A DNA stretch of 64,000 nt from an uncultured Gammaproteobacteria bacterium. Lineage in GTDB: Bacteria > Patescibacteriota > Microgenomatia > Levybacterales > UBA12049. The DNA is taken from assembly GCA_964533055.1 (NCBI GenBank), contig CAZHKZ010000003.1, positions 2,483-66,482 of the forward strand. Reading direction: 5' to 3'. Every line of letters begins with the position of its first letter. Within the stretch, counting starts at the first letter, position 1. Position numbers and translations under genes: made by a program. The notes beneath the pieces are model-generated. The model made no database searches, had not been told where the DNA came from, and worked only from the letters and a program-made list of their open reading frames with translations. Positions 6,398 to 57,258 of this stretch are shown piece after piece.

Positions 6398-6419
6398 GTA
6401 TTTATTGTAGCAAAAGGGG

Positions 6420-8249: not shown

Positions 8250-8304
8250 AAGGTATGATAGGGATGGTCCTGGGTCGATCTGGGGTCAATGACCATTGTA
8301 ACAT

Positions 8305-8994
8305 ATGAAAAAGCTCTTTATCGTAGCGAACTGGAAGTCACATAAGACCGTTATGGAAGTGCATTCGTTTTTGATAGCTTTCTTCCACAAGGAATTAAGC
8401 AGATGGCTACATGAGGGGGGAGATTTTCATAAAACTATCGTTCTTTGTCCGCCATTTACGCTTCTTTCAACGTTAAAACAATCACTTCTAGAATTCGATC
8501 ATAAGAATATAAAAATGTCGCTAGGCGCACAAGACATCTCATCATTTCCGGCTGGATCGCATACCGGTGAGGAATCATCAGAACAACTTTCAGATCTAGT
8601 GGATTATGTAATCGTTGGCCATTCAGAAAGGAGAATTGAGCTGCAAGAGACTGAAGAAATGCTTGTGCAGAAAGTCATCCAGGCTCATTTGGGAGGTCTT
8701 GAACCAATCTTTTGCGTACAAGGCATGACAAATGAAATTCCAAAAAATGTGAGGATTGTAGCATATGAACCAATTGATGCAATTGGAACTGGCAAAGTTG
8801 CCTCACTTGATCAAATTGAAAATGTGGCTCTCTTTTACAAGAAAGAAAAAGATATTCACTACGTACTTTATGGCGGAAGTGTGACGGCCGAGAATATCGC
8901 GCAGATCACTGCAATACCGTCAATAGATGGAGTGTTGGTTGGTGGGGCTAGTCTTAATCCGCATGAATTTTCTCAAATAGTTATGCTCTCTTAA
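8305..8994 (+). CDS. tpiA: triose-phosphate isomerase
   Basis: ANWKSHKT, VGHSERR, YGGSV. Confidence 0.85.
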   Translation: MKKLFIVANWKSHKTVMEVHSFLIAFFHKELSRWLHEGGDFHKTIVLCPPFTLLSTLKQSLLEFDHKNIKMSLGAQDISSFPAGSHTGEESSEQLSDLVDYVIVGHSERRIELQETEEMLVQKVIQAHLGGLEPIFCVQGMTNEIPKNVRIVAYEPIDAIGTGKVASLDQIENVALFYKKEKDIHYVLYGGSVTAENIAQITAIPSIDGVLVGGASLNPHEFSQIVMLS

Positions 8995-9015
8995 AGTAGT
9001 ATATAATCAAAATCT

Positions 9016-10146
9016 ATGTCCCAATCGAGATCAAAAACATTAAAAAAAGTAATACTCGCCCTCATTGCAATTTTCGTTATTTCCGTAGGTATTAAGATCG
9101 CAATAACACTTATTTCATTCGCCCCAGTTGTGTATGAATTTGCTTTTAACAAAGGTATCGACTTAAAAAAGACCGAAGATCAACGCGTGAATATTCTCCT
9201 ACTAGGTGTTGGAGGTGGCAAGCATGATGGTCCGTATCTTACAGATACAATTATTTTTATTAGCGTTGACCCGGCGCTGAAGGAAGTGAAGATGATAACG
9301 CTTCCTCGAGATCTTTGGATCACTGAGATTGATGCGAAAGTTAACACAGCATACGCAAAAGGCTTAAAGTCTGGGAAAGGCCTGAGTCTTAGTAAGGCAT
9401 CAGTTGGGAAAGTATTGGGACAAAAAATTGATTATGGATTTAGAATTGATTTTAATGGATTTATAAAGGCGGTTGATCGACTTGGTGGGATAACAGTCAA
9501 TGTAGAAAGGACATTTGATGATTATGAGTATCCGATTACTGGTAGTGAAGGTGACACGTGCGGATTTGAGGGCGAAGAGTTTCAGAAGCGTGCGACTGAA
9601 GCTGCAGAAAAGCAGCTAGAGGCATTTCCTTGTCGATATGAGCATCTTCATTTCGACAAAGGAGTACGGGCTATGGACGGCGAGACTGCATTGAAGTATG
9701 TTAGATCTCGTCATGCGGTTGGTGATGAGGGGACAGATTTCGCACGATCTAAGAGGCAGGAAAATGTCATTAACGCTGTAAAAGATAAAGTTTTTTCAGT
9801 AGGAACACTCCTTGATCCTATAAAAATTGCCAACCTTTATGATGTATTTAAAGATAGCATCGATACAGATATAAAAAAAGAAGAGTACGATGATTTTGTA
9901 AAGTTAGCTCAAAAAATGAAAGGTACAACCATTGAGAGTTCTGTGATTGATGATAGTGATGACTTGACGCAGGGTGCGGGACTTTTGACCAACCCTCCGA
10001 TATCTGAAACATATGGAGGTCAGTATGTGCTCGTACCGAAAAAGGGTCCAACTGACTTCACGGATATTCATTCCTATGTAGATTGCTTCGTTGAGCATGA
10101 AGGTTGTCCCACCCCATCTCCAACATCCCTAAAGAAAAGTAATTAA
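9016..10146 (+). CDS. LytR-CpsA-Psr (LCP) family cell-wall glycopolymer ligase
   Basis: N-terminal TM, then NILLLGVGG...DTIIFISVDP, the LCP domain signature. Confidence 0.8.
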   Translation: MSQSRSKTLKKVILALIAIFVISVGIKIAITLISFAPVVYEFAFNKGIDLKKTEDQRVNILLLGVGGGKHDGPYLTDTIIFISVDPALKEVKMITLPRDLWITEIDAKVNTAYAKGLKSGKGLSLSKASVGKVLGQKIDYGFRIDFNGFIKAVDRLGGITVNVERTFDDYEYPITGSEGDTCGFEGEEFQKRATEAAEKQLEAFPCRYEHLHFDKGVRAMDGETALKYVRSRHAVGDEGTDFARSKRQENVINAVKDKVFSVGTLLDPIKIANLYDVFKDSIDTDIKKEEYDDFVKLAQKMKGTTIESSVIDDSDDLTQGAGLLTNPPISETYGGQYVLVPKKGPTDFTDIHSYVDCFVEHEGCPTPSPTSLKKSN

Positions 10147-12392
10147 AGCCTGTAGATTTTTGTTTCGTTGCTCTGAAAGACAATCGACCCAACCTGGTCA
10201 AGAAGTGTTTCGTTAAGAAGATATTTTTCCTTTTCAAGAGCTCCAACAAACACATACTTAATCTCATATTTATGGACAAGATTCTTGAAGGTGTTTAGAT
10301 CAGTTGTTTCATAGAGGGACTTGATCTCCTCAATTCTTGGTGATGGGATGTCATAACTCCCTCTCCAGAGCCACTCATGTACAGTCCAGCCAAGCACCGT
10401 TGGAAGTCCTGTATTTGCTGACACTCTGCCGTAGTCTGTGTAGGAGTCTCCCTGTGCCTCAAGAATGACAGGTTGATCAGAGACATTTTTTTGCATCCAG
10501 AGAATTCCATTATAGTCATCTGGATATTTTTGTTTAAGGTAGATCGTTCCATCTAGCGTGCGGACTTTATCATGAATAAACTCTGCTGAAAAGATATTTC
10601 CATAAAAAGAGGTGAGTGAGAAATAAGGATAGACAAAGACGATAACAAGCAGCATCGTTGTCGAAACAAAAAAGAGACAATACGTTATAACGTGTATCGG
10701 CGACCTCTTTGATTTAAGAACCTGTGAGATCCTGGCTATGATATAGCCAGATGCCAGGGAGAACATGATAAAGCTTTCAAAAACCAGTTTGAACATCGTA
10801 TTCGCTCTATAGTGTGCTGGATAAATATCCTTTGCGTAAATAAATTCAGGAACAATGATAAGAATCGTCGACAGGATTATCAGTAGTGCGATAAAAATGT
10901 CAGATGGTGAAAGTTTTTTAGTGCGAGTTAGGAAAATGATAAAAAGGATTGTAAAGAAAATAAAAAATCCATAGAGGATTCCAAGTTGCCAAATTGGAGA
11001 TCTCAGGCAATGGTCTGCTTCAAAGAGAAATGGCCCAACATGTCCAAGATCGGTCAGTACTTTAGGAGCGCAAAGAATTCCAACACCCGAGACAAACGGT
11101 TTGAAAGCAAGTGAGAATGGCAATGATATGACAAAAAAAAGTCCACCAAGTAAGATGAGTGGCACAAATGTTTCCTCAATAATCTGAAGGATTCTATCAA
11201 GTAAGGGCTTTTTCAGAAAAAGTACTCCAAGTTTTTTGTACAGAAGAATTATTGCCGCAAAAAGAAGATAGATCAGGCCATCCCAGGCGTTTGTCATATA
11301 CATGATTGCTAGAAGTGTACCAAGCGCAATGAAGTGAGTTGTCCTCATTGGGATGTATGTTGAAAGACGCGAAAGGATTGTGAGCACTTTCTTTTTTGAG
11401 ACTTTCCTTTTTACGACAGTCTTTTGTGTTATAAAAATCGAATAGAGCAGGGCAATTGTTGTAAGAACAATTGGAATATCAAGTGCATGGCCATGAAGAT
11501 CGGAGACAGTCCATGAATAAATTGGAAATTCATGAATAGTATTATGAATAAATCTTGTTGCGTTTGGATACCAGTAGCCATTCGGAAATGTATTTGGGAG
11601 GAATTGTTGTTGCCAAAATGGCACTGGCTTTTCAGGATCATAGACTTTAAAGAGTGAATATGTCGCATGGAGATTTCCAGAAAATGTTACAAGGAATGCA
11701 CAGAGTAGTCCGACAAGGATATATTTTAGAGAGCGGATTTTATCATTGATATTTCTGTAGATGCTTGCGCCAAGAGAAAAGCTCTCTATAAAGCAGAGTG
11801 CAGCTAGAGTTGCAATCATAAGATTGTAGGAGTAGTTAGAGTGGGTAAATGAGAGCTTGGTAAGTACTGCGGTGAAAAGATGTCCAAAATAATAGTAGTT
11901 TATTGATAGCGGGGAAAGCCACATATCTTTTGGTGGGAAGTAGCTGGATTTAAGAATTGAATTAACAAAGCCAAAGTCCATGAATTTTTCAAGCCCATTT
12001 ATCTCTGGTGTAAAGGAGCGTACGAATGAAAAGAAAATAAGTATACTTATGAAAAAAAGCTCCTCAGCTAGGAAAATCTTCCAGTGATCGCGTAGGAAAG
12101 TAAAAATAATGCTTCGAGTTTTCTCTTTATAATTTCTATAGATTGCGAAAATCGAGCCAGCTGCTAAAAGTGTACAGAGTAAGAAAAGCGAGGGTGTTGA
12201 GAAGGGGAGCAGGTGTGCAAATCCAAGGACAAATGCAGCATATGAAATTATGATTGCTCCGAGGATCTTACTAAAAGCATATCCTTTATCAAGAAAACCA
12301 TTGAAAAGCAGTGCTGATATGGGAAGTGAAATTGCTCCTAGAACAAAGAGCATTGTCCACCATTGAAGGAGAAATGCTATATCAGCGCTCAT
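10143..12392 (-). CDS. large polytopic membrane protein (DUF2298/GT-C-like)
   Basis: 749 aa, more than 12 TM helices. INYYYFGH motif and a C-terminal soluble domain. Last gene of the minus-strand envelope cluster. Confidence 0.45.
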   Translation of the reverse strand: MSADIAFLLQWWTMLFVLGAISLPISALLFNGFLDKGYAFSKILGAIIISYAAFVLGFAHLLPFSTPSLFLLCTLLAAGSIFAIYRNYKEKTRSIIFTFLRDHWKIFLAEELFFISILIFFSFVRSFTPEINGLEKFMDFGFVNSILKSSYFPPKDMWLSPLSINYYYFGHLFTAVLTKLSFTHSNYSYNLMIATLAALCFIESFSLGASIYRNINDKIRSLKYILVGLLCAFLVTFSGNLHATYSLFKVYDPEKPVPFWQQQFLPNTFPNGYWYPNATRFIHNTIHEFPIYSWTVSDLHGHALDIPIVLTTIALLYSIFITQKTVVKRKVSKKKVLTILSRLSTYIPMRTTHFIALGTLLAIMYMTNAWDGLIYLLFAAIILLYKKLGVLFLKKPLLDRILQIIEETFVPLILLGGLFFVISLPFSLAFKPFVSGVGILCAPKVLTDLGHVGPFLFEADHCLRSPIWQLGILYGFFIFFTILFIIFLTRTKKLSPSDIFIALLIILSTILIIVPEFIYAKDIYPAHYRANTMFKLVFESFIMFSLASGYIIARISQVLKSKRSPIHVITYCLFFVSTTMLLVIVFVYPYFSLTSFYGNIFSAEFIHDKVRTLDGTIYLKQKYPDDYNGILWMQKNVSDQPVILEAQGDSYTDYGRVSANTGLPTVLGWTVHEWLWRGSYDIPSPRIEEIKSLYETTDLNTFKNLVHKYEIKYVFVGALEKEKYLLNETLLDQVGSIVFQSNETKIYRL

Positions 12393-12937
12393 GCTTTTCG
12401 TTTCTCCATCATCTGAGATATTTCAGGAATTCTTATGATGTTCCCTGGCAATTTCTGGGCTTTTGATGAACTATCAAGCCAATAGAACTGGGTTTTTTTG
12501 ATGTGCTTAGCTAGATGAGTAAGTAGGGCAAGGTCATCATCAATATATTTATCAAGCTTGAGACTCCCTAGAACTTCTTCTTTAAAGATATGTGGCTGAA
12601 GGTTAGTGTAGTTAAAATACATGCCATCAAATATCAGATCAAGCCCCAGTTTTTTGGTAATTCTCTCTGTTTGTTTTTCCAAAAAGCGAAATCGACTTGA
12701 AATAAGGAAAACTTTATTAGTTTTGGCAACTTTTTTGAGGAAGGCCATGTTGTCTTGGAGCGGTGGGCGAAAGATTGGATTATGTGAAATTTGCCTTATG
12801 AGTTGCTCAGGGAGAGAGGGGATTCTATACATAAGATTTTTTGATGAGTTCTTTTTGTAGAGTCTATTTATAAGATCATCAGAAATAAAAGGTGGATAGT
12901 CTATGAGAACTTTGTCCAGATCAAATCCTATTCGCAT
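12389..12937 (-). CDS. HAD-superfamily hydrolase-like protein
   Basis: N-terminal IGFDLDKVL (DxDxV motif I), LISSR (motif II), K, DDD (motif IV). Confidence 0.4.
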   Translation of the reverse strand: MRIGFDLDKVLIDYPPFISDDLINRLYKKNSSKNLMYRIPSLPEQLIRQISHNPIFRPPLQDNMAFLKKVAKTNKVFLISSRFRFLEKQTERITKKLGLDLIFDGMYFNYTNLQPHIFKEEVLGSLKLDKYIDDDLALLTHLAKHIKKTQFYWLDSSSKAQKLPGNIIRIPEISQMMEKRKA

Positions 12938-12940
12938 ACA

Positions 12941-13978
12941 TTATATTTTAGAGATGAGGTTAAGAATTTGAAAGTCCCAACCTACCCTATGAGTATCGCC
13001 GGTTCTTTTTTGAATTTTTGTTCTATTCTTCTTGTACCAGAGATAACTTTCAAGGAGTAATTCTTTATTCGATTTTTTTGGTTGCCAGTTAAGTAGGTCC
13101 TGTGCTTTTTGAATTGAAACATATGAAGGCACTGGCATTGTCATATAGTGCCATGCTGCAAGTGGGGAGAGGTGGAGCCACTCAAGAACTCTTAGGGCAA
13201 TCTGCGTTGGGAGAACTGGAAGTCCTGTAATTTTTGAAACTGACTTGTCATGTCTGATGACAGTTTTGAGATCTTTTCTCCACGTCTGGTATTCGCGAGC
13301 GCCAATGTTGAATATTTCATTCTTAACACTACTAACAAGGGCCTTATAGATTGCATCAGCAACATCAGAAACTGCAAGGAGCTGATACTTGTTGTTTCCC
13401 TTGCCGAGAATAAATACTCTCCTGCCTGTATAAATTGCCTCAAACCAGAGCGAGAAGACACCCAATCTTTCAGGTCCAAGGAAGGTCTTGGGTCTAATAA
13501 TATTAATAGGAAGGCCCTTCTCCATATATTCTTTGCAGATCTGCTCACCGATAAGCTTTGATTGTCCATAGTAGCCAATTGGCTCGAGTGGACTTTCCTC
13601 AGTTTCGGGAAGATGTTTTGGGACGCCATAGAGTGCGGTCGTTGAGATAAAAACAAGTCTTTTCACCTTCTGCTCATATGCCGCATCAACAACTCTTTTT
13701 GTTCCATCAACATTAACACTAAAGATTTTTTGTTTGGTTCTCTGAATTGGGAGTGCTGCTGCGGCATGAATGACATGAGTTATTCCTTTCATTGCCAGGG
13801 TAATATCTTTTTTCTTTCTAATATCACCCTTAATCACCGTTACTTTTCCGATCAGATCTTTTGCGTCAAGAGGTGCTTGGTCAAAAAGTGTGACAGTAAA
13901 ATCCTTTTTAAGAAGAAGTCTTGCGAGGTGCACGCCTAAAAATCCACAACCACCAGTGATGAGAACATGAGGCTTCAT
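12941..13978 (-). CDS. NAD-dependent epimerase/dehydratase (extended SDR)
   Basis: VLITGGCGFLGVHLARLL Rossmann motif, YxxxK region. 345 aa. Confidence 0.8.
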   Translation of the reverse strand: MKPHVLITGGCGFLGVHLARLLLKKDFTVTLFDQAPLDAKDLIGKVTVIKGDIRKKKDITLAMKGITHVIHAAAALPIQRTKQKIFSVNVDGTKRVVDAAYEQKVKRLVFISTTALYGVPKHLPETEESPLEPIGYYGQSKLIGEQICKEYMEKGLPINIIRPKTFLGPERLGVFSLWFEAIYTGRRVFILGKGNNKYQLLAVSDVADAIYKALVSSVKNEIFNIGAREYQTWRKDLKTVIRHDKSVSKITGLPVLPTQIALRVLEWLHLSPLAAWHYMTMPVPSYVSIQKAQDLLNWQPKKSNKELLLESYLWYKKNRTKIQKRTGDTHRVGWDFQILNLISKI

Positions 13979-14023: not shown

Positions 14024-15724
14024 TCAGTTTTTTTGAGTATTTTTAAAAATGGTTACAACAGGGTGATCATAGACACTAAATGACTCGTCAAAATTCTGAT
14101 CATTGAACTCAATTGTAGTAAATGGAATATGCGCAAATGATGTAAATTCAGCTACTTTTTTGTAGCCTAACTTTTCGGCAAAAAGGTCATTATAGTACTG
14201 TGCGGTTTGAACATAACATTTTCCAGGAGGAAGTTTCGAGCAGGTGGTTAGCTTTCTCAGTGGCGTGTAAAGTCTATTGGATGCAAGAATTATATAGTCA
14301 CTTCTCTGGAGTGAAAGATTGATACTGTCCCACTTAGCTGGTGTATCAGCTTCATAAAGTGGCAGTGTCTCATATTTATAAGCTCCTGCATTAAATATCG
14401 GGAGTGAATCGTCCCAATGTTCAATTGCAAGTGTGCTTTGGGGTGGAATATTTTTCATGATCCAAAGACTTGCCTCAAATCTTGTAAAAGGTTTTGCATA
14501 GATTGTCATAAATGATAGCGGCCATAAGAGGATTGCGATAAGTGTAATTCCAATAAGGAGCCTTTTCCCAGAATAAACTTTTCTGAATATTTGACTACAT
14601 AGAAGAGCTCCAAAGAGAGCGAGAATTGGATAGAGAGGAAGCATGTACCTGACAAAACCAATTGCAAACTTACCAACAATGAAGAAATATACCATGAAGA
14701 AAAGGAGGAGGATTAGCTCTTGCCTTGAAAAGTCCATCGCTCTCCTTCTGGCAAGAGCGACTATTCTATAGATTATTCCTGCAAAGCAAATGGTTGCAAG
14801 AAATGGTCCCATACCGATAAAAAATATTTGGGTAAGATCGTAGAGATAGGGAATTTTGCCAACATATTGTAGCGTGTAGGGGAAAGTAAAGGCGTCTCTT
14901 GTCATTGCTGCTTGAGCAAGAGTTTGCTGTACGAATTCCTGAAAATCTAGTGCAACATAAGGTTGCAATATGAAGAACAATAGAATGGTAACCGTACCAG
15001 TGGCACTAAAATAGTAGAGTAGCTTTTTGATATAGGCTGGGATATGTTGGGCCCAGATGCTTGGTCTATGAGGCTGCTTTATAAAGAGTAGAGCAAAATC
15101 CAGGATGATTGTTGCTAGAAATGAGGTCAAGAGAACTGTGGCGCTAATCTTTGTTGCAAAAGCACAGGCAAGTGAAGCGCCGATCGCCAAGGCTATTTTT
15201 AGTGAAGGTTTCTTATAAAGTCTAATGAGCAGATAGAGCGTAAGTGTAATGAAGAATGTTAAAAGTGTATCAACAGCATAAAATCGCGAGAGTTGGATCG
15301 GGAGCACAGCAGTGCCATAGAAAAATGATGCCAATAGTCCTACTTTTTCTCCCCAGAGTTTTTTACCAATATAAAAAACAAGTGCTAATGTCCCAAGGTC
15401 TGCAATAAGTGAAAGACATCTCCCAATAAGCGTGAGATAGTCATAAGAAAAGTACTCTGGCCTAATGAGGCTGAAAGCTTTTCCAGTCCAGTACAGAAGA
15501 TAAAGCGGTAGTGATCCGTATGCGAAGAAATGCGGATTCCAGCTACTATCTTTGTCAAGAAATTGTGAGACTGAGGTCGGGAATGACAGCTCATTTGTGA
15601 AGAGTACAACTGCCCTTTCGTCTGGGTGCATATGATATCCCTGGTCCCAATTGATTCCCACTAGTCGGAGAATTCCAGAAATGAGAAATATTCCTATAAA
15701 GAGTAACTTAATGTTTTGCTTCAT
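14024..15724 (-). CDS. GT-C fold membrane glycosyltransferase (PMT_2/ArnT-like), paralog 1
   Basis: 566 aa polytopic. First-loop motif YHMHPDERAVV (DE motif). Paralogous to the adjacent gene. Confidence 0.6.
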   Translation of the reverse strand: MKQNIKLLFIGIFLISGILRLVGINWDQGYHMHPDERAVVLFTNELSFPTSVSQFLDKDSSWNPHFFAYGSLPLYLLYWTGKAFSLIRPEYFSYDYLTLIGRCLSLIADLGTLALVFYIGKKLWGEKVGLLASFFYGTAVLPIQLSRFYAVDTLLTFFITLTLYLLIRLYKKPSLKIALAIGASLACAFATKISATVLLTSFLATIILDFALLFIKQPHRPSIWAQHIPAYIKKLLYYFSATGTVTILLFFILQPYVALDFQEFVQQTLAQAAMTRDAFTFPYTLQYVGKIPYLYDLTQIFFIGMGPFLATICFAGIIYRIVALARRRAMDFSRQELILLLFFMVYFFIVGKFAIGFVRYMLPLYPILALFGALLCSQIFRKVYSGKRLLIGITLIAILLWPLSFMTIYAKPFTRFEASLWIMKNIPPQSTLAIEHWDDSLPIFNAGAYKYETLPLYEADTPAKWDSINLSLQRSDYIILASNRLYTPLRKLTTCSKLPPGKCYVQTAQYYNDLFAEKLGYKKVAEFTSFAHIPFTTIEFNDQNFDESFSVYDHPVVTIFKNTQKN

Positions 15725-17330
15725 GTCTAATTTTATACAGTATTACTGTAGGTCTATCAAAGATATTAACTGTTTGTTCAAAGCTGAAGATTGGACTATT
15801 TATATAGAGGAGTGAGCACCAGAAGTCACAAGGTGTTTCATAAATCTTCTCAAATCGACCAGAGGTAGTAATCTCATTATAAACAGCATTTCCTTTAGGG
15901 AAGTTTTTTGCATCAACAAGTCGAGTTTTATAAAGTCTCTGACTAGGAAGAATTAGATAGTCTGACTGATCAATCAAAGCGTTATATTTTTCCACTGTAG
16001 ATTCGGGGGAATTATTATCAAGGTCGTAGAAATTAAATAGAGTTATATTGGGATATGCCGAGTTGAAGGGGGTGATTCCGAGATCATAGACCTCAGATAT
16101 GATTGGACTTGTGCTCGGAATTGTTTTGTTGGCAAATGTTAATGCTTGAATTCTTGTATCAGTATCAAAATACACAGTTTTAATAAATGCAAAAGCCCAG
16201 AGCATACATAAAACTCCAATGCTGCCTTCTATAAAGTGCGATCCTTTTTTAGGGAAGAATTTTAGGTTTGAAATCTCGCTTAGACCATAAGCCACACAGA
16301 GGTAGATAAATGGAAGCGTTGGGATGAAGTAACGTGTCCATTGCGCAAATAAAAATGTTTGGGAAAAGAATGTGATCGAGAGAAAGATGAGAAGAAAAAT
16401 GAGCGGGTAGTCGACCCTTTTCCTCAGAGATACTAGGATGAACACAAATGATATTGGAAAGAGTATGGCGAATATCGGGCCAAGAATGAATGGATAAATT
16501 CGCATAATCGGGAAGAGAATTGGTATTGCTGAAAGGAATTCGCCAGTATAAAAAACAATAAGTTTGCCAAGAGCAACATTTGACTCATATGAAATACTGT
16601 TGAGAAAGGATTGGTGATCTAAATACACAAATGGATTCGTGAGTAGGTAGCAGGCTGCAGTTGCAATGAAGATGACGATGGTAGTAAATAATTTTTTATG
16701 AAAAGGATAGCGTTTTTTTAAATAGAGAGCGCCAATAGTTGGGAGAAAAATAATGCTTGAGATTTTAACGCTTATGAGAATTCCAAGTGACACCGCGATT
16801 ATGATTATTGCTTGGCGAGTTGGCTTGTGGAAATATTTGATAAAACCATAGAAGAGAAGTGTTGAGAAGAAGGTAAGCCATGTTTCAAATGTTCCAAAGT
16901 GGGCGTACTGAATTAGGCCAATGCTAAATGTGGAAAAAAATGCAGCGATGAGACCCGTTCGATTATCTTTAAGAAGCTGCCCTATTTTAAAGATAAGATA
17001 GATGGTGCCAATAGATAAAAATGTCGAGAATCCTCGTAAAATAAGAATCGCGTCCTCAAAGCTTACTTGATTAATCGAGGGGTGGTTGTGCATTGTTAGG
17101 AAGTTTTTGAGAAGCCCTGTAAAAAAAGTAAGGTAGATCGGTAGAGATCCATACGCAAAAAAGTGAGGATTAAATTGGTCTGGGTAGGAGAGTCCAGCGA
17201 TGGCGCTTGCAATATTTCTTTCATCGGGATGAAAGAAGAATGGCGATCCCCACGCTAGAGATATCAGTCTAAGTATTGATGCAAGGCATAAAAGTGCGAT
17301 AAGTATTTTTTGAGAATATTTATCCATCAT
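15708..17330 (-). CDS. GT-C fold membrane glycosyltransferase (PMT_2/ArnT-like), paralog 2
   Basis: 540 aa polytopic. FFFHPDERNIAS motif and overall similarity to the 14024..15724 protein. 17 nt overlap implies translational coupling. Confidence 0.6.
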   Translation of the reverse strand: MMDKYSQKILIALLCLASILRLISLAWGSPFFFHPDERNIASAIAGLSYPDQFNPHFFAYGSLPIYLTFFTGLLKNFLTMHNHPSINQVSFEDAILILRGFSTFLSIGTIYLIFKIGQLLKDNRTGLIAAFFSTFSIGLIQYAHFGTFETWLTFFSTLLFYGFIKYFHKPTRQAIIIIAVSLGILISVKISSIIFLPTIGALYLKKRYPFHKKLFTTIVIFIATAACYLLTNPFVYLDHQSFLNSISYESNVALGKLIVFYTGEFLSAIPILFPIMRIYPFILGPIFAILFPISFVFILVSLRKRVDYPLIFLLIFLSITFFSQTFLFAQWTRYFIPTLPFIYLCVAYGLSEISNLKFFPKKGSHFIEGSIGVLCMLWAFAFIKTVYFDTDTRIQALTFANKTIPSTSPIISEVYDLGITPFNSAYPNITLFNFYDLDNNSPESTVEKYNALIDQSDYLILPSQRLYKTRLVDAKNFPKGNAVYNEITTSGRFEKIYETPCDFWCSLLYINSPIFSFEQTVNIFDRPTVILYKIRHEAKH

Positions 17331-17332
17331 AC

Positions 17333-18610
17333 TTATGAAGTAGCTATTCCTGCGATTTTTTTGCCCAACTCAACTGCGTAGTTGGTCCCTCTGTCCCAAG
17401 GGTAGACTTGCTCAATGTTTGCAAGAAAAACGTGCTTTAAGGGTGTCTTAAATGGGGGAATTAACCTTGAATAATTGGTAGGAACAATCGGCTGAGCAAA
17501 AGGAGCTCTGAAGACCTCGAAGTCGATTATGCTTTTTTTATAGTTTTTGTTTATCCTTTTCAGGAGAGGGTCATACTTCTTGAGGAGCTCTTTTTTATCC
17601 ATTGAAAAAAGGTCACTTTTGGGATCAGGATAGTTGCCGACATAGACAATGTGCTCATTAGAAAAATTCTTTTTATCCATGAGGTTAGTGTGCTCGACGA
17701 CCACCATGACCGGTGCATTTTTCTCACATATGCTTAGCCAATAAGAACCATCTTTTATCAGCTGCTCACTTAGTCTAAGTACCATGTTGGTTGCGCCAAG
17801 CCCACGTAGTTTTACGAGCTTTTGCACATATTCTTGTGGAAGTTCCTGAGCGATTTTTAAAAAGAGGAATGAGGGGAGTGTCACGATGACTTTGTCAAAT
17901 TTCTCTGTCTTTGTTCTCGCCCCATTTTTATATGTGACCTCTGCATCTTTACCATCTTTAATCGCTATTGTTTCTGAGTTGAGATGAATTTTCCCGCCCT
18001 TCCCCTGAATATCTTTTGCAAGTGCTTGGGCAAAGTTGAGGAAGCCACCTTCTGGGTATGCAAGAGATGGAGTTCTTTTATAGATTCTAGTCCAGAACCA
18101 AACAAGTGATATTTCTGATGCATATTCACCCATTTTGTTCCGCAATTGTGGTTCCCAGAGCATAGAAAATGCTTTTTTACCCATGGTTTTTTCAAGAAAT
18201 GAGATCGCGTTTATTTTCTCAAGCGGTTTCCAGAAAGGATTTAATTTGAGGAACGCTAGAACGGCACTCATGCGAATCTTGTCAGCGAGTGGTAGCTTTG
18301 GGAAGCGAAGGATGGCAATTGGTGAATCAAGCTGATAGGTTCTGCCATCAATAAAGACAGATGTTTTAGGTCTTTTAATCAAGACTGGGAAGTTTATTTC
18401 TTTGGCTAGAGATAGGACATGTTCATCATTTGTAAACCAGTGATGATAATGCTTCTCCAGACTCCACTTCCATGACTTTTCTTTGTAGCCGATCGCTAGT
18501 CCTCCCGGCTGAGGATCCTTCTCAAGAAGTGTCACATCATTACCCATTTTCAAAAGTTCATGGGCAGCAGCAAGTCCTGTAAATCCTGCGCCAATTATTG
18601 CAATTTTCAT
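17333..18610 (-). CDS. FAD/NAD(P)-binding oxidoreductase (amine oxidase/PPOX/CrtI-like)
   Basis: MKIAIIGAGFTGLAAAHEL...LLEKDPQPGGLA is a Rossmann GxGxxG dinucleotide-binding motif plus the GG motif. Confidence 0.7.
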   Translation of the reverse strand: MKIAIIGAGFTGLAAAHELLKMGNDVTLLEKDPQPGGLAIGYKEKSWKWSLEKHYHHWFTNDEHVLSLAKEINFPVLIKRPKTSVFIDGRTYQLDSPIAILRFPKLPLADKIRMSAVLAFLKLNPFWKPLEKINAISFLEKTMGKKAFSMLWEPQLRNKMGEYASEISLVWFWTRIYKRTPSLAYPEGGFLNFAQALAKDIQGKGGKIHLNSETIAIKDGKDAEVTYKNGARTKTEKFDKVIVTLPSFLFLKIAQELPQEYVQKLVKLRGLGATNMVLRLSEQLIKDGSYWLSICEKNAPVMVVVEHTNLMDKKNFSNEHIVYVGNYPDPKSDLFSMDKKELLKKYDPLLKRINKNYKKSIIDFEVFRAPFAQPIVPTNYSRLIPPFKTPLKHVFLANIEQVYPWDRGTNYAVELGKKIAGIATS

Positions 18611-20052
18611 AAAGTACTTCCTCGCTGCATAAAGAACAACATTGCTCCAATGCCGAGCACAAGAATGGTTATTATACCTGAAAAAACTACATTTGAGCTA
18701 CCCGGTGAGGACATGGTGGGTGATGGGGAAAGTGAAGTTGGCGGTACTGTCGTAGCTTCTGGGCTAGCGCTTGCACTAAGCGTCGGCGAAAGCGTTGGTA
18801 TTACTGTCATAGTAGCTGTTGGACTTACTGAGGGCGCTACGGTTGGAGTCGATTTGGTTGGGTTTGGTGTTTGACTGATAGTTGGAATCGTCGATGGGTT
18901 TGTAGGTGAGACGGATGGCTCAGTAAACTGACTGCCTTCTGCAAAGACGGTAAAATTTCTAGTGATAGTTGTGAGGATCCCCTTACTATTTTTGGTCTTT
19001 ATAGTAATAGTATGGTCGCCAGGGGAAAGATTGCTAGGTGGTCGATATGACCAGATGCCATTTTTATCTGCTTTTACAGATGCGGTGATGGGATCAGAGT
19101 GTATTTCAATAAGAACCTCTTCATTAGGTGCTGATGTGCCTTCAAATTTGGGCTGTTGGTCAGTTAGTTCTTCCTTGTTGTCTGGGCTTACGATGGCTGG
19201 TTCTGCTGGGAGATCCTCAACTGCACTAAATGATGGAAACGCATTATCATCAACCTGAGCGGATTCAGTCGATATAGGAGTTGCGTTAGGATCGCTGCTG
19301 TCTACGGTGAAATCATAAATGTTTGAGAGTGTTATCTTAGGAACAGGATTGATTTGGGCCGGAAGTAGCGAGACTCGGGAAGTCAGAGTTGGACTTTGAA
19401 ACAATAGCTTGATGATAGAAGAGTCTTTGAATGCCAGATAACTACCAAAGTCGCTCGTTCGAAGTGCGTTAAGTGGAAGTACAAAACTTCCATTCGGCTT
19501 TGTAAGAGTTGAAAGCATCTGTGCACTGTCTGTTACGAGGAACACCATGACACTATCATCGGTAGATCCATCAGGATATGCTGCGCTTCCCACGATTGGA
19601 GCTTGGCGCGATGGCTGCTGGGTGATTGTTGAAAGGGTCTTGATACTGAATGGCTTCTTGCCCTCATCCTGAAAAACTTTATCTGAGGAAAGGATCGTAT
19701 AGTAATAGGTGGTCTCAGGCTTTAAGTTGCGAAGCGTTATATGGTGTACGTTGTATTGTTTTGGAGTACCTGACTGCTGGTCACGATCATCAAGTGCCAC
19801 TTTCCCTCTATCAACACCCTCTCCATAAGAAAGCGATCCCAAAACCTTTTCATCAGTTATGTAGGAAATGGTGAATGATGTGTCAGTTTGATTACTGATC
19901 CTTATTTGCTTAGGGGTGTAAGCAGGAGATGCATTTGTAAGTAAGAGTAAATCACTCCTGAGGAGTATCGACACAGTCACGAGTCCAATTCCTAGGAGGA
20001 TAAGCCCAAGAAGTGTTGGAATTCTCTTATGAAAAAATGATGAATTGTTCAA
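18607..20052 (-). CDS. membrane-anchored surface protein (FN3/PAP-N-like domain, Ig-like domain, Pro/Thr/Ser linker, C-terminal TM)
   Basis: N-terminal signal/anchor. TSFTISYITDEKVLGSLSYGEG...TTYYYTI resembles the FN3-like N-domain of purple acid phosphatases, with no phosphoesterase motifs. DKNGIWSY Ig-like motif. PT-rich tail and a terminal hydrophobic helix. Confidence 0.5.
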   Translation of the reverse strand: MNNSSFFHKRIPTLLGLILLGIGLVTVSILLRSDLLLLTNASPAYTPKQIRISNQTDTSFTISYITDEKVLGSLSYGEGVDRGKVALDDRDQQSGTPKQYNVHHITLRNLKPETTYYYTILSSDKVFQDEGKKPFSIKTLSTITQQPSRQAPIVGSAAYPDGSTDDSVMVFLVTDSAQMLSTLTKPNGSFVLPLNALRTSDFGSYLAFKDSSIIKLLFQSPTLTSRVSLLPAQINPVPKITLSNIYDFTVDSSDPNATPISTESAQVDDNAFPSFSAVEDLPAEPAIVSPDNKEELTDQQPKFEGTSAPNEEVLIEIHSDPITASVKADKNGIWSYRPPSNLSPGDHTITIKTKNSKGILTTITRNFTVFAEGSQFTEPSVSPTNPSTIPTISQTPNPTKSTPTVAPSVSPTATMTVIPTLSPTLSASASPEATTVPPTSLSPSPTMSSPGSSNVVFSGIITILVLGIGAMLFFMQRGSTL

Positions 20053-20363
20053 AGTTCGCCTCCTTGAAGCGCAGAAGTCGTTCCTGAATTTTCAGGTGGC
20101 GTATCTAGCGGGAGCGTCTCAGTTGCACTGGGTGTTGCTTGTTCATCCGCAGATATTTTTCCATCTATCTGCTTTCTCTTCTTGAGAGAATTTATGACAT
20201 CGGTGTTGAATTTAGGATCGATTTCTTCGATGGATGCGTTTACCCTCTGGGAAATGGTTGAAGTTATTGCTTTTGTATATATCGCAACTGCAATCCAGAC
20301 TATTACCACAATAACTGATGGAACAAGGATGTAGAGTAGATTTTTTTGTGTTTTTTTATTCAT
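20049..20363 (-). CDS. small bitopic membrane protein
   Basis: 104 aa. One N-terminal TM, then a polar ST/P-rich tail. ATGA overlaps with both neighbours. Confidence 0.4.
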   Translation of the reverse strand: MNKKTQKNLLYILVPSVIVVIVWIAVAIYTKAITSTISQRVNASIEEIDPKFNTDVINSLKKRKQIDGKISADEQATPSATETLPLDTPPENSGTTSALQGGEL

Positions 20364-20365
20364 AG

Positions 20366-20983
20366 TTATGGCATATAGAATACTTTTGCCTGAAGGTATA
20401 GCCTGTATCCGTTAAGTTCTGTTGGGACCTGGAGAGAAATATTTTTGAAGGTTAGTAGGCGATCAAAATTAGTGATCTCAGTATAGAAATTGATCAGGTT
20501 GTCATATTCTCCCTGGGCCCCGATGATCATGTTAAATTGTGCCAGTTCGCCAACAGTAGCGGGCTGACTTAATGGGATGTTTGTGATCTGGAGCTGACTT
20601 AAGAAAACATTGTTGTCATTTGCGATTGTCCTCACTTTTGCAATAAGACTTGGCCCACTTGGCTCATTTGGAATTGCGGCATTTATATATTTCAGGTCTG
20701 ATGTAATTTGTGAATATTGACTTGAGAGATTGCTAAGGGAGGTGATCTTGACAGCAAGCTTGTCATGGACGAACTTGCTATCATCAAGTCTTTTTTGTAG
20801 CTCAAATATTGTGGTAAGTGTGGGCATGATCGCAAAAATAGCAAAGAAGATGAACGCAAAGAGTGACAAAATTATCGTTGCATAGTTCTGTGCTTTTTCC
20901 TCGCGAAGATTGATTTTTGAGCGAACTAGCTCGAGATATTTTTGTTTTGATAAATTAGTAAAGAATTCTTTTGATACTTTCAT
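20366..20983 (-). CDS. type IV pilus assembly PilO-like protein
   Basis: Short cytoplasmic N-terminus, one TM (ATIILSLFAFIFFAIFAIMP), a coiled-coil segment, then a C-terminal domain. Start set at the internal Met (20981-20983) lying 4 nt after the PilN stop (TAATATG). Confidence 0.45.
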   Translation of the reverse strand: MKVSKEFFTNLSKQKYLELVRSKINLREEKAQNYATIILSLFAFIFFAIFAIMPTLTTIFELQKRLDDSKFVHDKLAVKITSLSNLSSQYSQITSDLKYINAAIPNEPSGPSLIAKVRTIANDNNVFLSQLQITNIPLSQPATVGELAQFNMIIGAQGEYDNLINFYTEITNFDRLLTFKNISLQVPTELNGYRLYLQAKVFYMP

Positions 20984-20984
20984 A

Positions 20985-21569
20985 TTATTTCCCTTGATTT
21001 GGCGGCAACGTCTCTTTGCCGCCTGTTTCTGGTAGAGTGATCTCTGCCGAGATCTGGGCGTCAATATCAGCAGTCTCAGTCTTGTTATCAATCCGATCGA
21101 TGCTTACTGTTGAGAGCTCTTTGAGGTTTTGAAGTGAGGTTACATATTTCTTAAGCGTCGCAACATCGGGGGCGGAAACAGTGAGCGAGATGCTCTTTTC
21201 ACCCAGTTGAATATTCGTGAACGTGATTGGGCTTTGCGTCAGTCCTGCGATTTTAGTAAAGATCTGCGGCGCAGCTTTTGACGCTTTATCTATAACCGAT
21301 GCATGGGTTAATTTGCTGATTAACACCCGGTATTTCGATTCATCTAGGGAAGATGCTTCAACGATCACACCTTGAGCTTTGATTTTGTCACTATAGTCAA
21401 CTATTTGCCTGTCTAGGTTGAATCTATAGAGGAACGCGCCAAGTGCAATTGTCTCAGTGAGAATGACTAAGAATCTGCCGCCTGTGATTGCCCATTTAAC
21501 AAATACATCAAGTGAAGTGGAATTCTGTTTTTTTATGAGATTGATTCGTAATTGAGCTTTGTTATCCAT
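20985..21569 (-). CDS. type IV pilus assembly PilN-like protein
   Basis: N-terminal LRINLIKK resembles the PilM-binding INLLP motif. One TM, periplasmic coiled-coil, then a ferredoxin-like region. 194 aa. Confidence 0.5.
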   Translation of the reverse strand: MDNKAQLRINLIKKQNSTSLDVFVKWAITGGRFLVILTETIALGAFLYRFNLDRQIVDYSDKIKAQGVIVEASSLDESKYRVLISKLTHASVIDKASKAAPQIFTKIAGLTQSPITFTNIQLGEKSISLTVSAPDVATLKKYVTSLQNLKELSTVSIDRIDNKTETADIDAQISAEITLPETGGKETLPPNQGK

Positions 21570-21702: not shown

Positions 21703-21731
21703 TGGAAAGAGCGAGCAGAGTGTGGTATACT
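21703..21731 (+). promoter_or_regulatory. putative extended -10 promoter for fusA (TGG-TATACT)
   Basis: TGGTATACT at 21723-21731 with a weak -35 TGGAAA 17 nt upstream, about 45 nt before the fusA ATG. Confidence 0.35.
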
Positions 21732-25015: not shown

Positions 25016-26188
25016 ATGGCGCGAAAGAAAATTAGTGAATTTAAGGCAAAGAGTCTCGTGCTTTCAGCATTAAGTATCCCCTATCAAGGCATCTCTCTTC
25101 AAAAAGGTGATACCACTCCCCTCTCATCGCTTGATGAAAATAAGAAATATGTTCTCAAAGTGGATCAGGGTATTAAGAAGCGATTCAAGCTCGGTCTTGT
25201 TGCTCTTAATATCTCAAAGACTGAAATTGAGGGCGTAATGAATGACTTGGCTGAGAAAGGATATCAGTCTTTTATTCTTGAGGAGTATTTAGAGCATGAT
25301 CAAAAGGAGGAGCGATATCTTTCATTTGAGAGAACAAGGGACGGAATCACGTTTATGGCTTCAAGAAGCGGCGGTGTCACAGTTGAAGACAATATGGGCC
25401 AAATTAAAAAGTTTACTCTCCCTCATCAGACACATGATGCGGCTGAATATCTGGAGCTACCTGAGGATATTTTACGCAAGATTGTTCAATGCATGGATAG
25501 GCTTCATATCTCTTTTCTTGAAATTAACCCACTTGTTGTTAGCAATAATGACCTCACTTTTCTCGATATGGCGATTGAGGTTGATGATGCGGGAGAATTT
25601 TTCGTTGAGAAGGCTTGGGTCTCTGAGGATTTTGTAGTTGAGGCAGGTAGCAAGACAAAAGAAGAAGAGGCTATTGAGGAATTGTCATCCAAGAGTCAGG
25701 CATCATTTAGGCTCGTGGTCCTCAATCCGAATGGGTCAATATTTATGCTACTTTCTGGAGGTGGAGCGAGCATTGTGTTAGCAGATGAGGTTTATAACGT
25801 CGGTCAAGGCAAAGAGCTCGCTAATTATGGAGAGTATAGTGGCAATCCAAATGCAGAGGAGACATATCTCTATACAAAAGAGATACTAAGCCTCCTTTTA
25901 TCATCCAGTGCGAGTAATAAAAAGCTGATAATCGCAGGTGGAGTTGCTAATTTTACCGATATTCGCATTACGTTTAAAGGAGTGATCAAGGCAATTGCTG
26001 ATGTAAAAACAATGCTTTCAGAGCAGGGTGTCAAAGTCTTCGTCAGACGAGGTGGCCCATTTGAAAAAGAGGGGCTACAGATGATTGAAGACTTTCTCAA
26101 AAAAGAAAACCTCTATGGATTTGTTACTGGCCCAAATCTCCCTTTAACAGAGATAGTTGAGAAAGCGATAGGTGGTGCTCATGCTTAA
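25016..26188 (+). CDS. aclB: ATP-citrate lyase, ATP-grasp (beta/AclB-type) subunit
   Basis: Collinear with the N-terminal half of eukaryotic ACLY. Shared blocks: KISEFKAKSLVL, VLKVDQGIKKRFKLGLVALN, LEINPLVV, LLSGGGASIVLAD, ELANYGEYSGNP, IIAGGVANFTDI, FKGVIKAI, VFVRRGGP. Confidence 0.85.
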   Translation: MARKKISEFKAKSLVLSALSIPYQGISLQKGDTTPLSSLDENKKYVLKVDQGIKKRFKLGLVALNISKTEIEGVMNDLAEKGYQSFILEEYLEHDQKEERYLSFERTRDGITFMASRSGGVTVEDNMGQIKKFTLPHQTHDAAEYLELPEDILRKIVQCMDRLHISFLEINPLVVSNNDLTFLDMAIEVDDAGEFFVEKAWVSEDFVVEAGSKTKEEEAIEELSSKSQASFRLVVLNPNGSIFMLLSGGGASIVLADEVYNVGQGKELANYGEYSGNPNAEETYLYTKEILSLLLSSSASNKKLIIAGGVANFTDIRITFKGVIKAIADVKTMLSEQGVKVFVRRGGPFEKEGLQMIEDFLKKENLYGFVTGPNLPLTEIVEKAIGGAHA

Positions 26189-27983
26189 CATAGAAGAACT
26201 TCGAAAGGCAGACATTGGCATTCTTTTTATCGGAAGCCACCCAGGTATTATCCAGTCAATATTGGATTTTGACTATTTGTCCGGTAAGTCTGCTCCAAGC
26301 GTCCTTGCTGTTATCGCGACAAATAGGAAGTACGAGAAGTATTTTTTTGGTTCGAAAGAGGTGCTCATCCCCGTTTATGAATCGTGTTCTGCGATCCCAG
26401 AGTCTCGCTCAAAAGACATAACATTGTTTTACAATGTTACATCAGCAAGAAGAGTACTGACTTCTTCAAAGGATGCGTTCTTGACGATTCCGTCAATTAA
26501 GCTTGGAGTTATTTTTGCAGAAGATGTTCCAGAGGAGCACTCGCTACTTTTGCGTGACTTCATTCTTGAGAGAAAGAAGACCTTGTTGGGTCCAGCAAGC
26601 GTTGGTCTTTTATTGCCAGGAATTCTAAAGTTAGGTGCGATTGGTGGCGTTGACTATAGACAGTTGATAGCCTCACATGTCTTTGAGATGGGCGATACAG
26701 CAGTCTTTTCTGCCTCAGGAGGAATGACAAATGAGATTATTCGAATTGTATCGCTTAATCAGAAGAGGCTGAGTTTTGCTCTTTCATTTGGTGGAGATCG
26801 CTTCCCAGTTCTTACCCCGGAAGATGCATTTTTGGCAGCTGAGAATGATCCTGCTACAAAAATGATCGTTTATTTTGGTGAACTAGGAGGGACCGATGAA
26901 TATGCCCTCATTGAGCTTATGAGGGAGAAAAAAATCACAAAGCCAATTGTCTGCTATATCGGTGGAGTAGTAGCTGAACTTTTTGAGACTCCCCCACAGT
27001 TTGGACACGCAAAAGCCATGGCGCAAAAAGGAGAGGAAACAGCTCGGGCAAAAAGAGATGCACTGAGGATGGCGGGTGCGAAGGTGGCGGAGTCATTTGC
27101 TGACTTTATTGAATATATTGGCAAGGGTGAGGTTTCAAAAGATTCTGAATTTGAGTATACTAACCGTATGGACGACTTACAGGATCGCAAGCATGCGCTC
27201 ATAACAACAACAATTTCAAATGATGAACGTGGAGAAGTACAGGTGCTCGGAGAGCCTCTTCTAAACTTTGTCTCAAGTAGGCCATTTGCTTCAATTGTAA
27301 GTTCGATGTTCTTGGGTAAAAAAACAATCTCTAAAGAACTTGAAGAATTTGTAGACTTTACTCTAAGGCTTCTAGTTGAACATGGCCCATATGTTTCAGG
27401 TTCTGTTAATACAATTGTGACGGCAAGAGCAGGTCGCGATCTCGTCTCATCCCTCGCTACAGGCCTCCTGACAATCGGGCCACGCTTTGGTGGAGCCATC
27501 AATCAAGCAGCAAGTAATTGGATTGCTGGAGTAAAGGACGGGAAAGATCCCAGTGAATTTGTCGAAGAATTTGCGAGCAAGAAAGAATATATCTCAGGCA
27601 TTGGACATCGAAAGTATAGGGTCGATGCTCCAGATCCTCGTGTAGCAAAATTACTCTCATTCACAGACTCACTTACTGAGAAAAAATATAGCTCTTTTGC
27701 GAAGAGCGTTGAGAAGGTCACTGTGGCAAAAAAAGGCAATCTTATTCTCAATGTCGATGGTGCGATAGCTGCTATTCTTTTGGATATTCTTTCTGAGAAA
27801 GAAGGTATGAAGACCGAGGAGTTGGATAATCTAGTAAAGACAGAGTTTTTTAACGCCCTCTTTGTCCTTTCAAGGAGTGTTGGATTTATCTCTCACTTCT
27901 TAGATCAAAAGAGAATTGATGAAGGCCTTTTTAGACTTGATGAAGAGCATGTTACTTATGCAAAGGACCTCTTTAACGAATAG
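26172..27983 (+). CDS. aclA: ATP-citrate lyase, CoA-binding/phosphohistidine + citryl-CoA lyase (alpha/AclA-type) subunit
   Basis: LDFDYLSGKSAPSVLAV, KEVLIPVY, KPIVCYIGG, catalytic His motif QFGHAKAM. The C-terminal citrate-synthase-like domain has HGPYVSGSVNTIVTARAGRDLVSSLATGLLTIGPRFGGA, GIGHRKYR, NLILNVDG, FVLSRSVGFISHFLDQKR. 17 nt overlap with aclB. Confidence 0.85.
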   Translation: MVLMLNIEELRKADIGILFIGSHPGIIQSILDFDYLSGKSAPSVLAVIATNRKYEKYFFGSKEVLIPVYESCSAIPESRSKDITLFYNVTSARRVLTSSKDAFLTIPSIKLGVIFAEDVPEEHSLLLRDFILERKKTLLGPASVGLLLPGILKLGAIGGVDYRQLIASHVFEMGDTAVFSASGGMTNEIIRIVSLNQKRLSFALSFGGDRFPVLTPEDAFLAAENDPATKMIVYFGELGGTDEYALIELMREKKITKPIVCYIGGVVAELFETPPQFGHAKAMAQKGEETARAKRDALRMAGAKVAESFADFIEYIGKGEVSKDSEFEYTNRMDDLQDRKHALITTTISNDERGEVQVLGEPLLNFVSSRPFASIVSSMFLGKKTISKELEEFVDFTLRLLVEHGPYVSGSVNTIVTARAGRDLVSSLATGLLTIGPRFGGAINQAASNWIAGVKDGKDPSEFVEEFASKKEYISGIGHRKYRVDAPDPRVAKLLSFTDSLTEKKYSSFAKSVEKVTVAKKGNLILNVDGAIAAILLDILSEKEGMKTEELDNLVKTEFFNALFVLSRSVGFISHFLDQKRIDEGLFRLDEEHVTYAKDLFNE

Positions 27984-57187: not shown

Positions 57188-57258
57188 CGGGGATTAGTTT
57201 AACGGTAGAATTCGCGGCTGGGGGCCGTGAGACCGGAGTTCAACTCTCCGATCCCCGA
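57188..57258 (+). tRNA. tRNA-Pro (anticodon GGG), 71 nt, short D-stem
   Basis: Manual fold: acceptor CGGGGAT/ATCCCCG, U8, anticodon stem CGCGG/CCGTG with loop CTGGGGG (U33, GGG, G37), T-arm CGGAG-TTCAACT-CTCCG, discriminator A. D-stem is only 3-4 bp with GG in the loop. Confidence 0.6.

Follow-up and report, generated by a model that had tools for sequence, protein, structure and literature searches.

A pilN–pilO gene cassette of Levybacteria, linked to two envelope-protein genes and encoded without a neighbouring pilM

A stretch of 64,000 nucleotides from the assembly GCA_964533055.1 (contig CAZHKZ010000003.1, forward-strand positions 2,483 to 66,482), in the following termed the window and used as reference for all coordinates unless stated otherwise, carries a group of four genes in which pilN and pilO, whose products act in the alignment of type IV pili (T4P), are followed by the genes of a small bitopic protein of about 105 residues and of a larger protein of about 465 residues that contains FN3 and Big_13 domains. 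The window belongs to a Levybacteria-type member of the candidate phyla radiation, and the same proteins are encoded on contigs that carry the label Candidatus Levybacteria or Levyibacteriota. Our analysis has revealed that the four genes form an invariant cassette across Levybacteria, with no pilM detected in its vicinity. We see about an even chance that the pair represents the T4P alignment proteins of this lineage, which would be encoded apart from pilM and accompanied by two lineage-specific envelope partners. Protein identities had already been assigned by public pipelines, and it is the order-wide arrangement that is new. In the literature searched, we did not find a pilN–pilO cassette that lacks pilM and includes a small protein and a beta-sandwich protein with a sortase signal, usually together with a glycosylation cluster.

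In the window, the cassette consists of pilN (20985-21569, 194 residues), assigned from its reading frame and homology, pilO (20366-20983, 205 residues instead of the 206 given in a preliminary description of this DNA), assigned by its match to the Pfam family PF04350, and the genes of the small bitopic protein (20049-20363, 104 residues, no known family) and of the large surface protein (18607-20052, 481 residues, TTG start), latter of which was recognized by its Pfam domains. The four co-oriented open reading frames (ORFs) that had been claimed are thus all present, and they are located on the minus strand, where they open a run of ten co-oriented genes extending from 21569 to 10143 and divergent from fusA (plus strand, start at 21720). 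The nine junctions between pilN and the last gene of this run, which encodes a DUF2298 membrane protein, measure +1, +2, -4, -4, +2, -17, +45, +3 and -4 nucleotides. Some of the finer details of this packing differ from the preliminary description. The start of pilO, placed there 4 nucleotides after the pilN stop, is found in the arrangement TAA-T-ATG, with the ATG located 1 nucleotide past the stop and the larger number obtained if the count begins at the first T of TAA. Overlaps of the sequence ATGA are exact only between the stop of the large-protein gene and the start of the following gene of a flavin adenine dinucleotide (FAD)-dependent oxidoreductase, since the overlap between the small- and large-protein genes reads TTGA as a consequence of the TTG start. 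Finally, of the 4-nucleotide overlaps thought to lead into the oxidoreductase and the GT-C glycosyltransferase genes, the one at the oxidoreductase is retained, whereas the oxidoreductase gene is separated from the GT-C gene by a gap of 2 nucleotides.

As judged by sequence profiles and its predicted fold, the 205-residue protein is a clear PilO. It matches PF04350 with 43.1 bits (cut-off 22, E=6e-11), as do all 26 collected orthologues with respect to the same family, and a profile of these proteins identifies the PilO structures of M. xanthus (E=1.1e-10) and P. aeruginosa (E=7.8e-8) in the PDB. The protein contains a transmembrane segment (residues 35-53), a long helix extending to about residue 103 and an alpha-beta-beta-alpha-beta-beta domain (residues 113-203), and these features are mirrored in an AlphaFold2 model composed of helices at residues 5-103 and 113-123, followed by two strands, a helix and two further strands. 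In a Foldseek search of the PDB, the four best matches of this model are PilO structures, including 3jc8_O, 2rjz and 5uvr. The sequence of transmembrane segment, coiled coil and C-terminal domain proposed in the preliminary description is thus borne out by the transmembrane prediction, the model and the structural comparison, and some relatives already carry the name 'type 4a pilus biogenesis protein PilO' in the NCBI and JGI pipelines. An assignment as an FtsL/FtsB/DivIC-type protein, to which the match of one orthologue to DivIC (E=0.006) would point, was abandoned, since PilO is matched by each of the 26 orthologues, which also have a C-terminal ferredoxin-like domain.

On equivalent grounds, the 194-residue protein is a PilN, albeit a divergent one. 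Its score of 13.1 bits against PF05137 remains below the cut-off of 22.8, and this family is matched (E<0.01) by 19 of 49 orthologues with a best E of 9.4e-7. The best sequence match of the family profile in the PDB is PilN of M. xanthus (E=0.044). The protein is predicted to have a cytoplasmic N-terminus, a weakly hydrophobic membrane helix at about residues 26-50 and a coiled coil to about residue 109, and its AlphaFold2 model, with a predicted local distance difference test (pLDDT) score of 79, shows a helix at residues 18-109 preceding a beta-beta-alpha-beta-beta domain at residues 116-177. The top Foldseek matches of this model include XcpY (GspL), PilO, a pullulanase type II secretion system (T2SS) membrane protein, PilN of T. 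thermophilus, EpsL and EpsM, with target TM-scores of about 0.5-0.7 for structures of isolated domains and modest E-values between 1e-3 and 2e-2. In canonical PilN, an N-terminal INLLP motif with I-N-L as its core binds PilM. The window protein contains the related sequence INLIKK at residues 9-14 (nucleotides 21545-21528), in which I9, N10 and L11 are each conserved in at least 90% of the family and the fourth position is variable, and this near invariance argues for a PilM partner encoded elsewhere in the genome. The membrane segment GRFLVILTETIALGAFLYRF (residues 26-50) is also nearly invariant across the family and contains an invariant Thr-Glu pair (T38-E39), due to which its hydropathy remains under the usual threshold. 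Unusual conservation is likewise seen in the membrane helices of PilO and of the small and large proteins. Some relatives are annotated as 'PilN domain-containing protein' by NCBI and JGI. The INLIKK motif, the single membrane segment and the extracytoplasmic domain described previously all hold up in the reading frame, the conservation pattern and the model, and the structural resemblance of the pair to PilN, PilO, GspL and GspM, for which a check had been proposed, is present at the level of sequence profiles and predicted fold.

The strict conservation of the cassette is reflected in searches from both of its ends. A genome scan with a PilN alignment has identified 29 species-level loci, and the full cassette was found in each locus with sufficient downstream DNA. 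In the reverse direction, a query of metagenome contigs with the large protein has provided 80 loci, where the genes of PilN, PilO and the small protein precede wherever upstream DNA exists. Of the loci with 1.9 kb or more of upstream sequence, all 75 contain the three upstream genes, including three loci that had been flagged by our script due to an overlap artefact and that do contain the small gene. The arrangement is even retained in the case of the lowest-scoring PilN inspected (130 bits), and the four genes keep their order and their coupled stops and starts down to about 30% PilN identity while both flanks change. On the upstream side, the neighbouring sequence switches from fusA to rpsT and murJ and, on the downstream side, the large-protein gene is the last of the operon in two loci (L120 and L036), where the block of oxidoreductase and GT-C genes is absent. 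In 63 of the 75 loci, the FAD oxidoreductase gene directly follows the cassette. The proposed tight packing of the pair with the genes of two membrane-anchored proteins and of glycosylation enzymes in the same orientation thus extends well beyond close relatives, with all cassette loci belonging to a single order-level lineage. In the metagenome-assembled genome (MAG) DASVYQ (SMAG_U2606; loci L022 and L034), two different PilN–PilO copies are located on separate contigs. The second of these is identical to the copy of MAG DASTLH, and a mixture of strains or contamination of the bin is the more likely explanation than a true duplication.

The two proteins accompanying PilN and PilO share a membrane-anchored architecture. 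The small protein spans the membrane at residues 10-28, followed by a conserved juxtamembrane motif (TSTIS ... I-x-P-I-x-P-x-F-D ... L-K-x-R) and a tail rich in Pro, Thr and Ser, and its family profile has retrieved no relative in either Pfam or the PDB. In the large protein, a strongly conserved W-x-K-R-I-P-T-L-L-G sequence and a transmembrane segment (residues 13-31) are found at the N-terminus, whose conservation far exceeds the needs of a signal peptide and thus suggests a partner in the membrane. The same region was considered as prepilin leader, an assignment that was dropped as it does not contain the G/F-T-L-I-E cleavage motif. Further domains include a Pur_ac_phosph_N/FN3 domain (residues 47-130), a middle domain that matches CarboxypepD_reg in 7 of 22 orthologues, a Big_13 Ig-like domain (residues 297-364) and a stalk (residues 373-452) that consists to 65% of Pro, Thr and Ser. 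Pfam matches and composition thus agree with the FN3/PAP-N-like domain, the Ig-like domain and the Pro/Thr linker that had been recognized before. The C-terminus, comprising the sequence SSPGSS, a hydrophobic segment (residues 455-473) and a basic tail (MQRGSTL), had been described as transmembrane segment. While its hydrophobic character is confirmed, it is better read as a putative wall-sorting signal of sortase type or sortase-derived, which would be degenerate in the window protein. Among 70 distinct orthologues, a motif of the form [LIV][PSA]x[TSA]G (LPPTG, IPPTG, LPATG or similar) is found in 40 and x-P-G-S in 19, including the window protein with SSPGS, and one orthologue matches the Pfam family Gram_pos_anchor (PF00746) with E=0.0065. 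No sortase turned up near the cassette, where no search was aimed at this enzyme.

Within the window, we have compared nearly all ORFs of at least 120 residues, except for small ribosomal-protein genes, to Pfam and found no pilus gene besides pilN and pilO. Three of these ORFs (48475-49482, 54094-54771 and 56135-57088) match no Pfam family, and the remainder includes ribosomal protein genes, secY, recA-recX, cell-wall genes and an ATP-citrate-lyase-like pair. Similarly, motif scans of the window revealed no prepilin leaders, no Walker A boxes of the PilB/PilT type and no signatures of actin-like ATPases. The layout of a pilMNOPQ-type operon was not encountered, with fusA in divergent orientation or rpsT and murJ, instead of pilM, being the upstream neighbours, and profile searches with the third and fourth cassette genes found no match to PilP or PilQ. 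A search for canonical relatives of PilN has also remained within the cassette family, to which the best 120 of 670 matches in a profile search all belong. In a representative search with 1467, 868 and 170 matches at E-values of 1e-3, 1e-10 and 1e-30, the 150 matches listed are all of cassette type, and PilM–PilN fusions of greater length are not among them. The genome scan described above employed a single narrow pattern, A[LM][GAL][AM]FLYRF, for which reason it has returned the cassette PilN family only.

The invariant coupling of the four genes, their stop–start overlaps and the unusual conservation of their membrane helices suggest that the encoded proteins might form an envelope complex. 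By analogy to known systems, PilN and PilO would assemble into a heterodimer with single membrane helices, coiled coils and paired ferredoxin-like domains outside of the membrane. In Levybacteria, the genes of this presumed heterodimer appear to have lost their proximity to pilM and the motor genes and to have become fixed next to those of the bitopic protein of about 105 residues and the protein of about 465 residues, in which three predicted beta-sandwich domains would be carried on a Pro/Thr-rich stalk that ends in the wall-sorting signal. From gene order and sequence features, we infer that a PilM encoded elsewhere could dock on the cytoplasmic I-N-L of PilN and thereby couple the pair to the PilB/PilC motor, whereas the small and large proteins would join PilN–PilO via their conserved membrane helices and tie the machine to the cell wall. 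Both would thus correspond to PilP and PilQ by the position of their genes, without being homologues. The Pro/Thr-rich stalks may in turn be O-glycosylated by the downstream GT-C enzymes of PMT type, using a lipid-linked sugar as donor that could be tailored by the FAD oxidoreductase and a short-chain dehydrogenase/reductase (SDR) enzyme.

Several observations weigh against this assignment of the pair as T4P alignment proteins with two envelope partners. In agreement with the preliminary description, our scans of the 64-kb window, and of about 120 loci with up to 10 kb on either side of the cassette, have not revealed pilM, pilB, pilT, pilC or pilin genes. For the 120 loci, this finding is a weak one that is based on crude motif scans, with which precomputed Pfam annotations for about nine loci agree. 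A direct connection of the cassette to a pilus machine was thus not seen within the window or the 10-kb flanks. Moreover, the N-terminal motif of PilN keeps only I-N-L, with Lys or Arg instead of Pro at its fifth position, the window version of the large protein reads SSPGS and not LPxTG, and confidence in the PilO model is moderate (pLDDT 68), owing to a shallow alignment. The association of the four proteins, the tethering to the wall and the glycosylation are proposed on the basis of gene order and sequence features only.

The remoteness from other pilus genes in the motif scans of about 120 loci speaks for a reuse of the scaffold as proposed in the preliminary description, in which a paralogous pair would have left the pilus and would now organize a membrane and wall complex for the display or glycosylation of the beta-sandwich protein, or work together with the GT-C and DUF2298 machinery. 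We consider such a repurposing unlikely. It would account for the nearly constant co-orientation with oxidoreductase and GT-C genes, which in the 63 loci mentioned adjoin directly, for the presence of a PMT gene next to the cassette even where the block is missing (L120), and for a neighbourhood of envelope-biogenesis genes including LytR-CpsA-Psr, FemAB, MurJ and DUF2298, and it is also in line with the conservation of the membrane helices of all four proteins and of the Thr-Glu pair in the helix of PilN. Conversely, an I-N-L of the type that binds PilM is nearly invariant, the specific glycosylation block is dispensable in L120 and L036, where the cassette stands alone, and synteny within one order may be inherited instead of functional. 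To our knowledge, no PilN/PilO pair is known outside of machines of the T4P or T2SS type.

Inheritance is also at the core of another explanation, according to which two unrelated functions share a transcript, with PilN and PilO acting in the pilus and the small and large proteins forming, with the glycosylation genes, an independent surface or S-layer-like glycoprotein unit in an operon that was frozen by descent in a compact genome. This we regard as rather unlikely, despite the fact that the large protein shows the layout of a typical wall-anchored and possibly glycosylated surface protein, that all loci come from a single order-level lineage and that CPR (candidate phyla radiation) genomes are compact, with unrelated genes (ribosomal-protein, adenylate kinase and methionine aminopeptidase genes) tightly packed in the window as well. 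It is difficult to reconcile with four genes that stay together in the same order and coupled down to about 30% PilN identity while their flanks are exchanged, and with the conservation of W-x-K-R-I-P-T-L-L-G and the adjacent membrane part of the large protein beyond the requirements of a signal peptide. Quite unlikely, in our view, is the farther-reaching proposal that the cassette constitutes an unrecognized envelope module, with PilN and PilO permanently coupled to a wall-anchored and glycosylated beta-sandwich protein and to a small adaptor. Such a module might be the first candidate for the wall-spanning or tethering part of a monoderm T4P machine, where it would stand in for PilP, PilQ and peptidoglycan-binding parts, or else a PilM-independent PilN/PilO scaffold for surface assembly in an ultra-small bacterium.

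Type IV pili are considered to have a central role in host attachment and DNA uptake of CPR bacteria (Patescibacteria). If the pair belongs to the pilus, the cassette offers, with the small and the large protein, two concrete candidates for how the pilus machine of these organisms crosses or is fixed in the wall and the surface layer and, if it does not, it would provide the first case of PilN and PilO working outside of a pilus. Even if these were ordinary alignment proteins whose genes have merely been relocated, the assignment would be a useful correction of annotation, since pilus inventories that rely on co-localization with pilM would mis-score Levybacteria.

Downstream of the cassette, the run of co-oriented genes on the minus strand continues with the FAD-dependent oxidoreductase of the amine-oxidase superfamily (17333-18610, 425 residues, NCBIfam PRK07233), two GT-C glycosyltransferases of PMT_2 type (15708-17330, 540 residues, and 14024-15724, 566 residues), an SDR epimerase/dehydratase-like protein (12941-13978, 345 residues), a protein of 182 residues without match in Pfam or NCBIfam (12389-12937) and a DUF2298/chlor_Arch_YYY membrane protein (10143-12392, 749 residues). 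Both glycosyltransferases match PF13231 (27.9 and 38.4 bits, cut-off 26.1), and the 566-residue protein in addition PF02366 (33.9 bits, cut-off 22.7). The gene of the 182-residue protein, whose N-terminal FDLDKVL is reminiscent of the DxDx(T/V) motif found in HAD phosphatases, is kept between the epimerase-like gene and the DUF2298 gene in most loci. In one locus (L013, 8031-10970), a single ORF of 979 residues joins the FAD oxidoreductase (residues 1-423) and a GT-C glycosyltransferase (residues 435-965), which hints at a joint action of both enzymes, with the fusion being found in one MAG only and a lost stop codon being a possible cause. A third GT-C-like protein with weak match to PMT_2/PMT, fused to C-terminal TPR repeats, is encoded in the window beside femAB (3787-5373, minus strand).

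The absence of the oxidoreductase/GT-C block in L120 and L036 illustrates that the link of the cassette to glycosylation is frequent but not obligatory. In L120 (11437-20058), the cassette is followed by an unknown protein of 402 residues and, on the other strand, by a true PMT (PF02366 and PMT_4TMC), next to which genes of LytR-CpsA-Psr, triosephosphate isomerase, UvrD and FemAB are found as in the window (5378-10146). With these neighbours being retained, the glycosylation block thus resembles an exchangeable insertion within a conserved region of envelope genes.

The spacer of 150 nucleotides that is common to the divergent pilN and fusA genes contains two features on the minus strand. One is a promoter-like site (TTGACA-17-TAGACT, 21679-21651), called from its consensus match only, which with 10 of 12 positions exceeds that of any other site on this strand of the region. 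The other is a hairpin followed by a T-run (21645-21622), located in the pilN leader between the promoter-like site and the start of pilN and resembling a terminator or attenuator, which matches no Rfam family and whose fold is not significant (z = -1.2). On the plus strand, long antisense ORFs at 18560-18874 and 18962-19258 face the Pro/Thr-rich part of the large-protein gene and are most likely shadows of its biased coding sequence and not genes. Elsewhere on this strand (25016-27983), the window contains the ATP-citrate-lyase-like pair, with Citrate_synth_N and Citrate_bind domains encoded in the first and Ligase_CoA and Citrate_synt domains in the second gene. Several Levybacteria loci (L001, L004 and L006) retain this pair next to ddl and fusA, and its occurrence would not be expected in a CPR genome of minimal metabolism.

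The features of the cassette can be related to several known systems. GspL and GspM of the T2SS (XcpY, EpsL, EpsM and PulL/PulM) share the periplasmic ferredoxin-like fold and rank first or close to first among the structural matches of the PilN model, and 8 of 26 PilO orthologues also match T2SSM_b. The cassette PilN, however, does not contain the cytoplasmic actin-like domain of GspL, other T2SS genes are absent, and sequence profiles favour PilO over GspM for the 205-residue protein (43 vs 16.6 bits). With respect to the downstream genes, GT-C enzymes of PMT type O-mannosylate proteins and the GT-C enzyme TfpW of P. aeruginosa arabinosylates pilin in conjunction with DprE1/DprE2-like enzymes. 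In a comparable manner, the GT-C (PMT_2) genes next to the cassette adjoin those of candidate substrates with extracellular regions rich in Pro, Thr and Ser, and a lipid-linked sugar donor could be tailored by the FAD oxidoreductase together with the SDR protein. The FAD enzyme differs in its affiliation with the amine-oxidase superfamily (PRK07233) instead of the DprE1 (VAO) family. The large protein resembles LPXTG proteins of Gram-positive bacteria in its tripartite C-terminus, its Pro/Thr-rich stalk and its Ig/FN3-like domains, and differs from them in an N-terminal segment whose conservation is that of a true membrane anchor and not of a signal peptide.

The closest relationship concerns the PilM-PilN-PilO-PilP(-PilQ) assembly of type IVa pili in P. 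aeruginosa and M. xanthus (PDB 3JC8, 2RJZ and 5UVR), to which PilO is homologous in sequence and fold. The cassette PilN displays the same succession of a cytoplasmic I-N-L, a single helix, a coiled coil and a ferredoxin-like domain, its gene is directly followed by pilO, and two more genes of envelope proteins occupy the positions of pilP and pilQ. The cassette is distinguished by the absence of pilM upstream of pilN in any of its loci and by the nature of its third and fourth proteins, a transmembrane protein with disordered tail and a beta-sandwich protein with sorting signal that are not homologous to PilP and PilQ, in a monoderm-type CPR bacterium without secretin. Also related are the pilM-pilN-pilO loci of Clostridium perfringens and of the CPR bacterium Nanosynbacter lyticus TM7x, which share the PilN and PilO families with the cassette and belong to organisms without outer membrane. 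In CPR bacteria, pilM, pilN and pilO are reported to be among the T4P genes that occur widely and are usually co-localized (PMC6744442; PMC12206443), with the supplement of one study providing a genome list for Levybacteria without results for pil genes per lineage (PMC12206443). In TM7x, recAX is located inside type IV pilus locus 2 (PMC12206443). Unlike in TM7x, recA and recX of the window (57336-58932, plus strand; tRNA gene at 57188-57258) are not flanked by pilus genes, and an adjacent ORF of 317 residues (56135-57088, minus strand) belongs to no family. The TM7x genes follow the order pilM-pilN-pilO and adjoin pilB, pilT, pilC and pilins (PMC12206443), whereas no such gene was detected within 10 kb of the pilN–pilO pair of Levybacteria, which is instead joined to the genes of the small and large proteins and to a glycosylation cluster.

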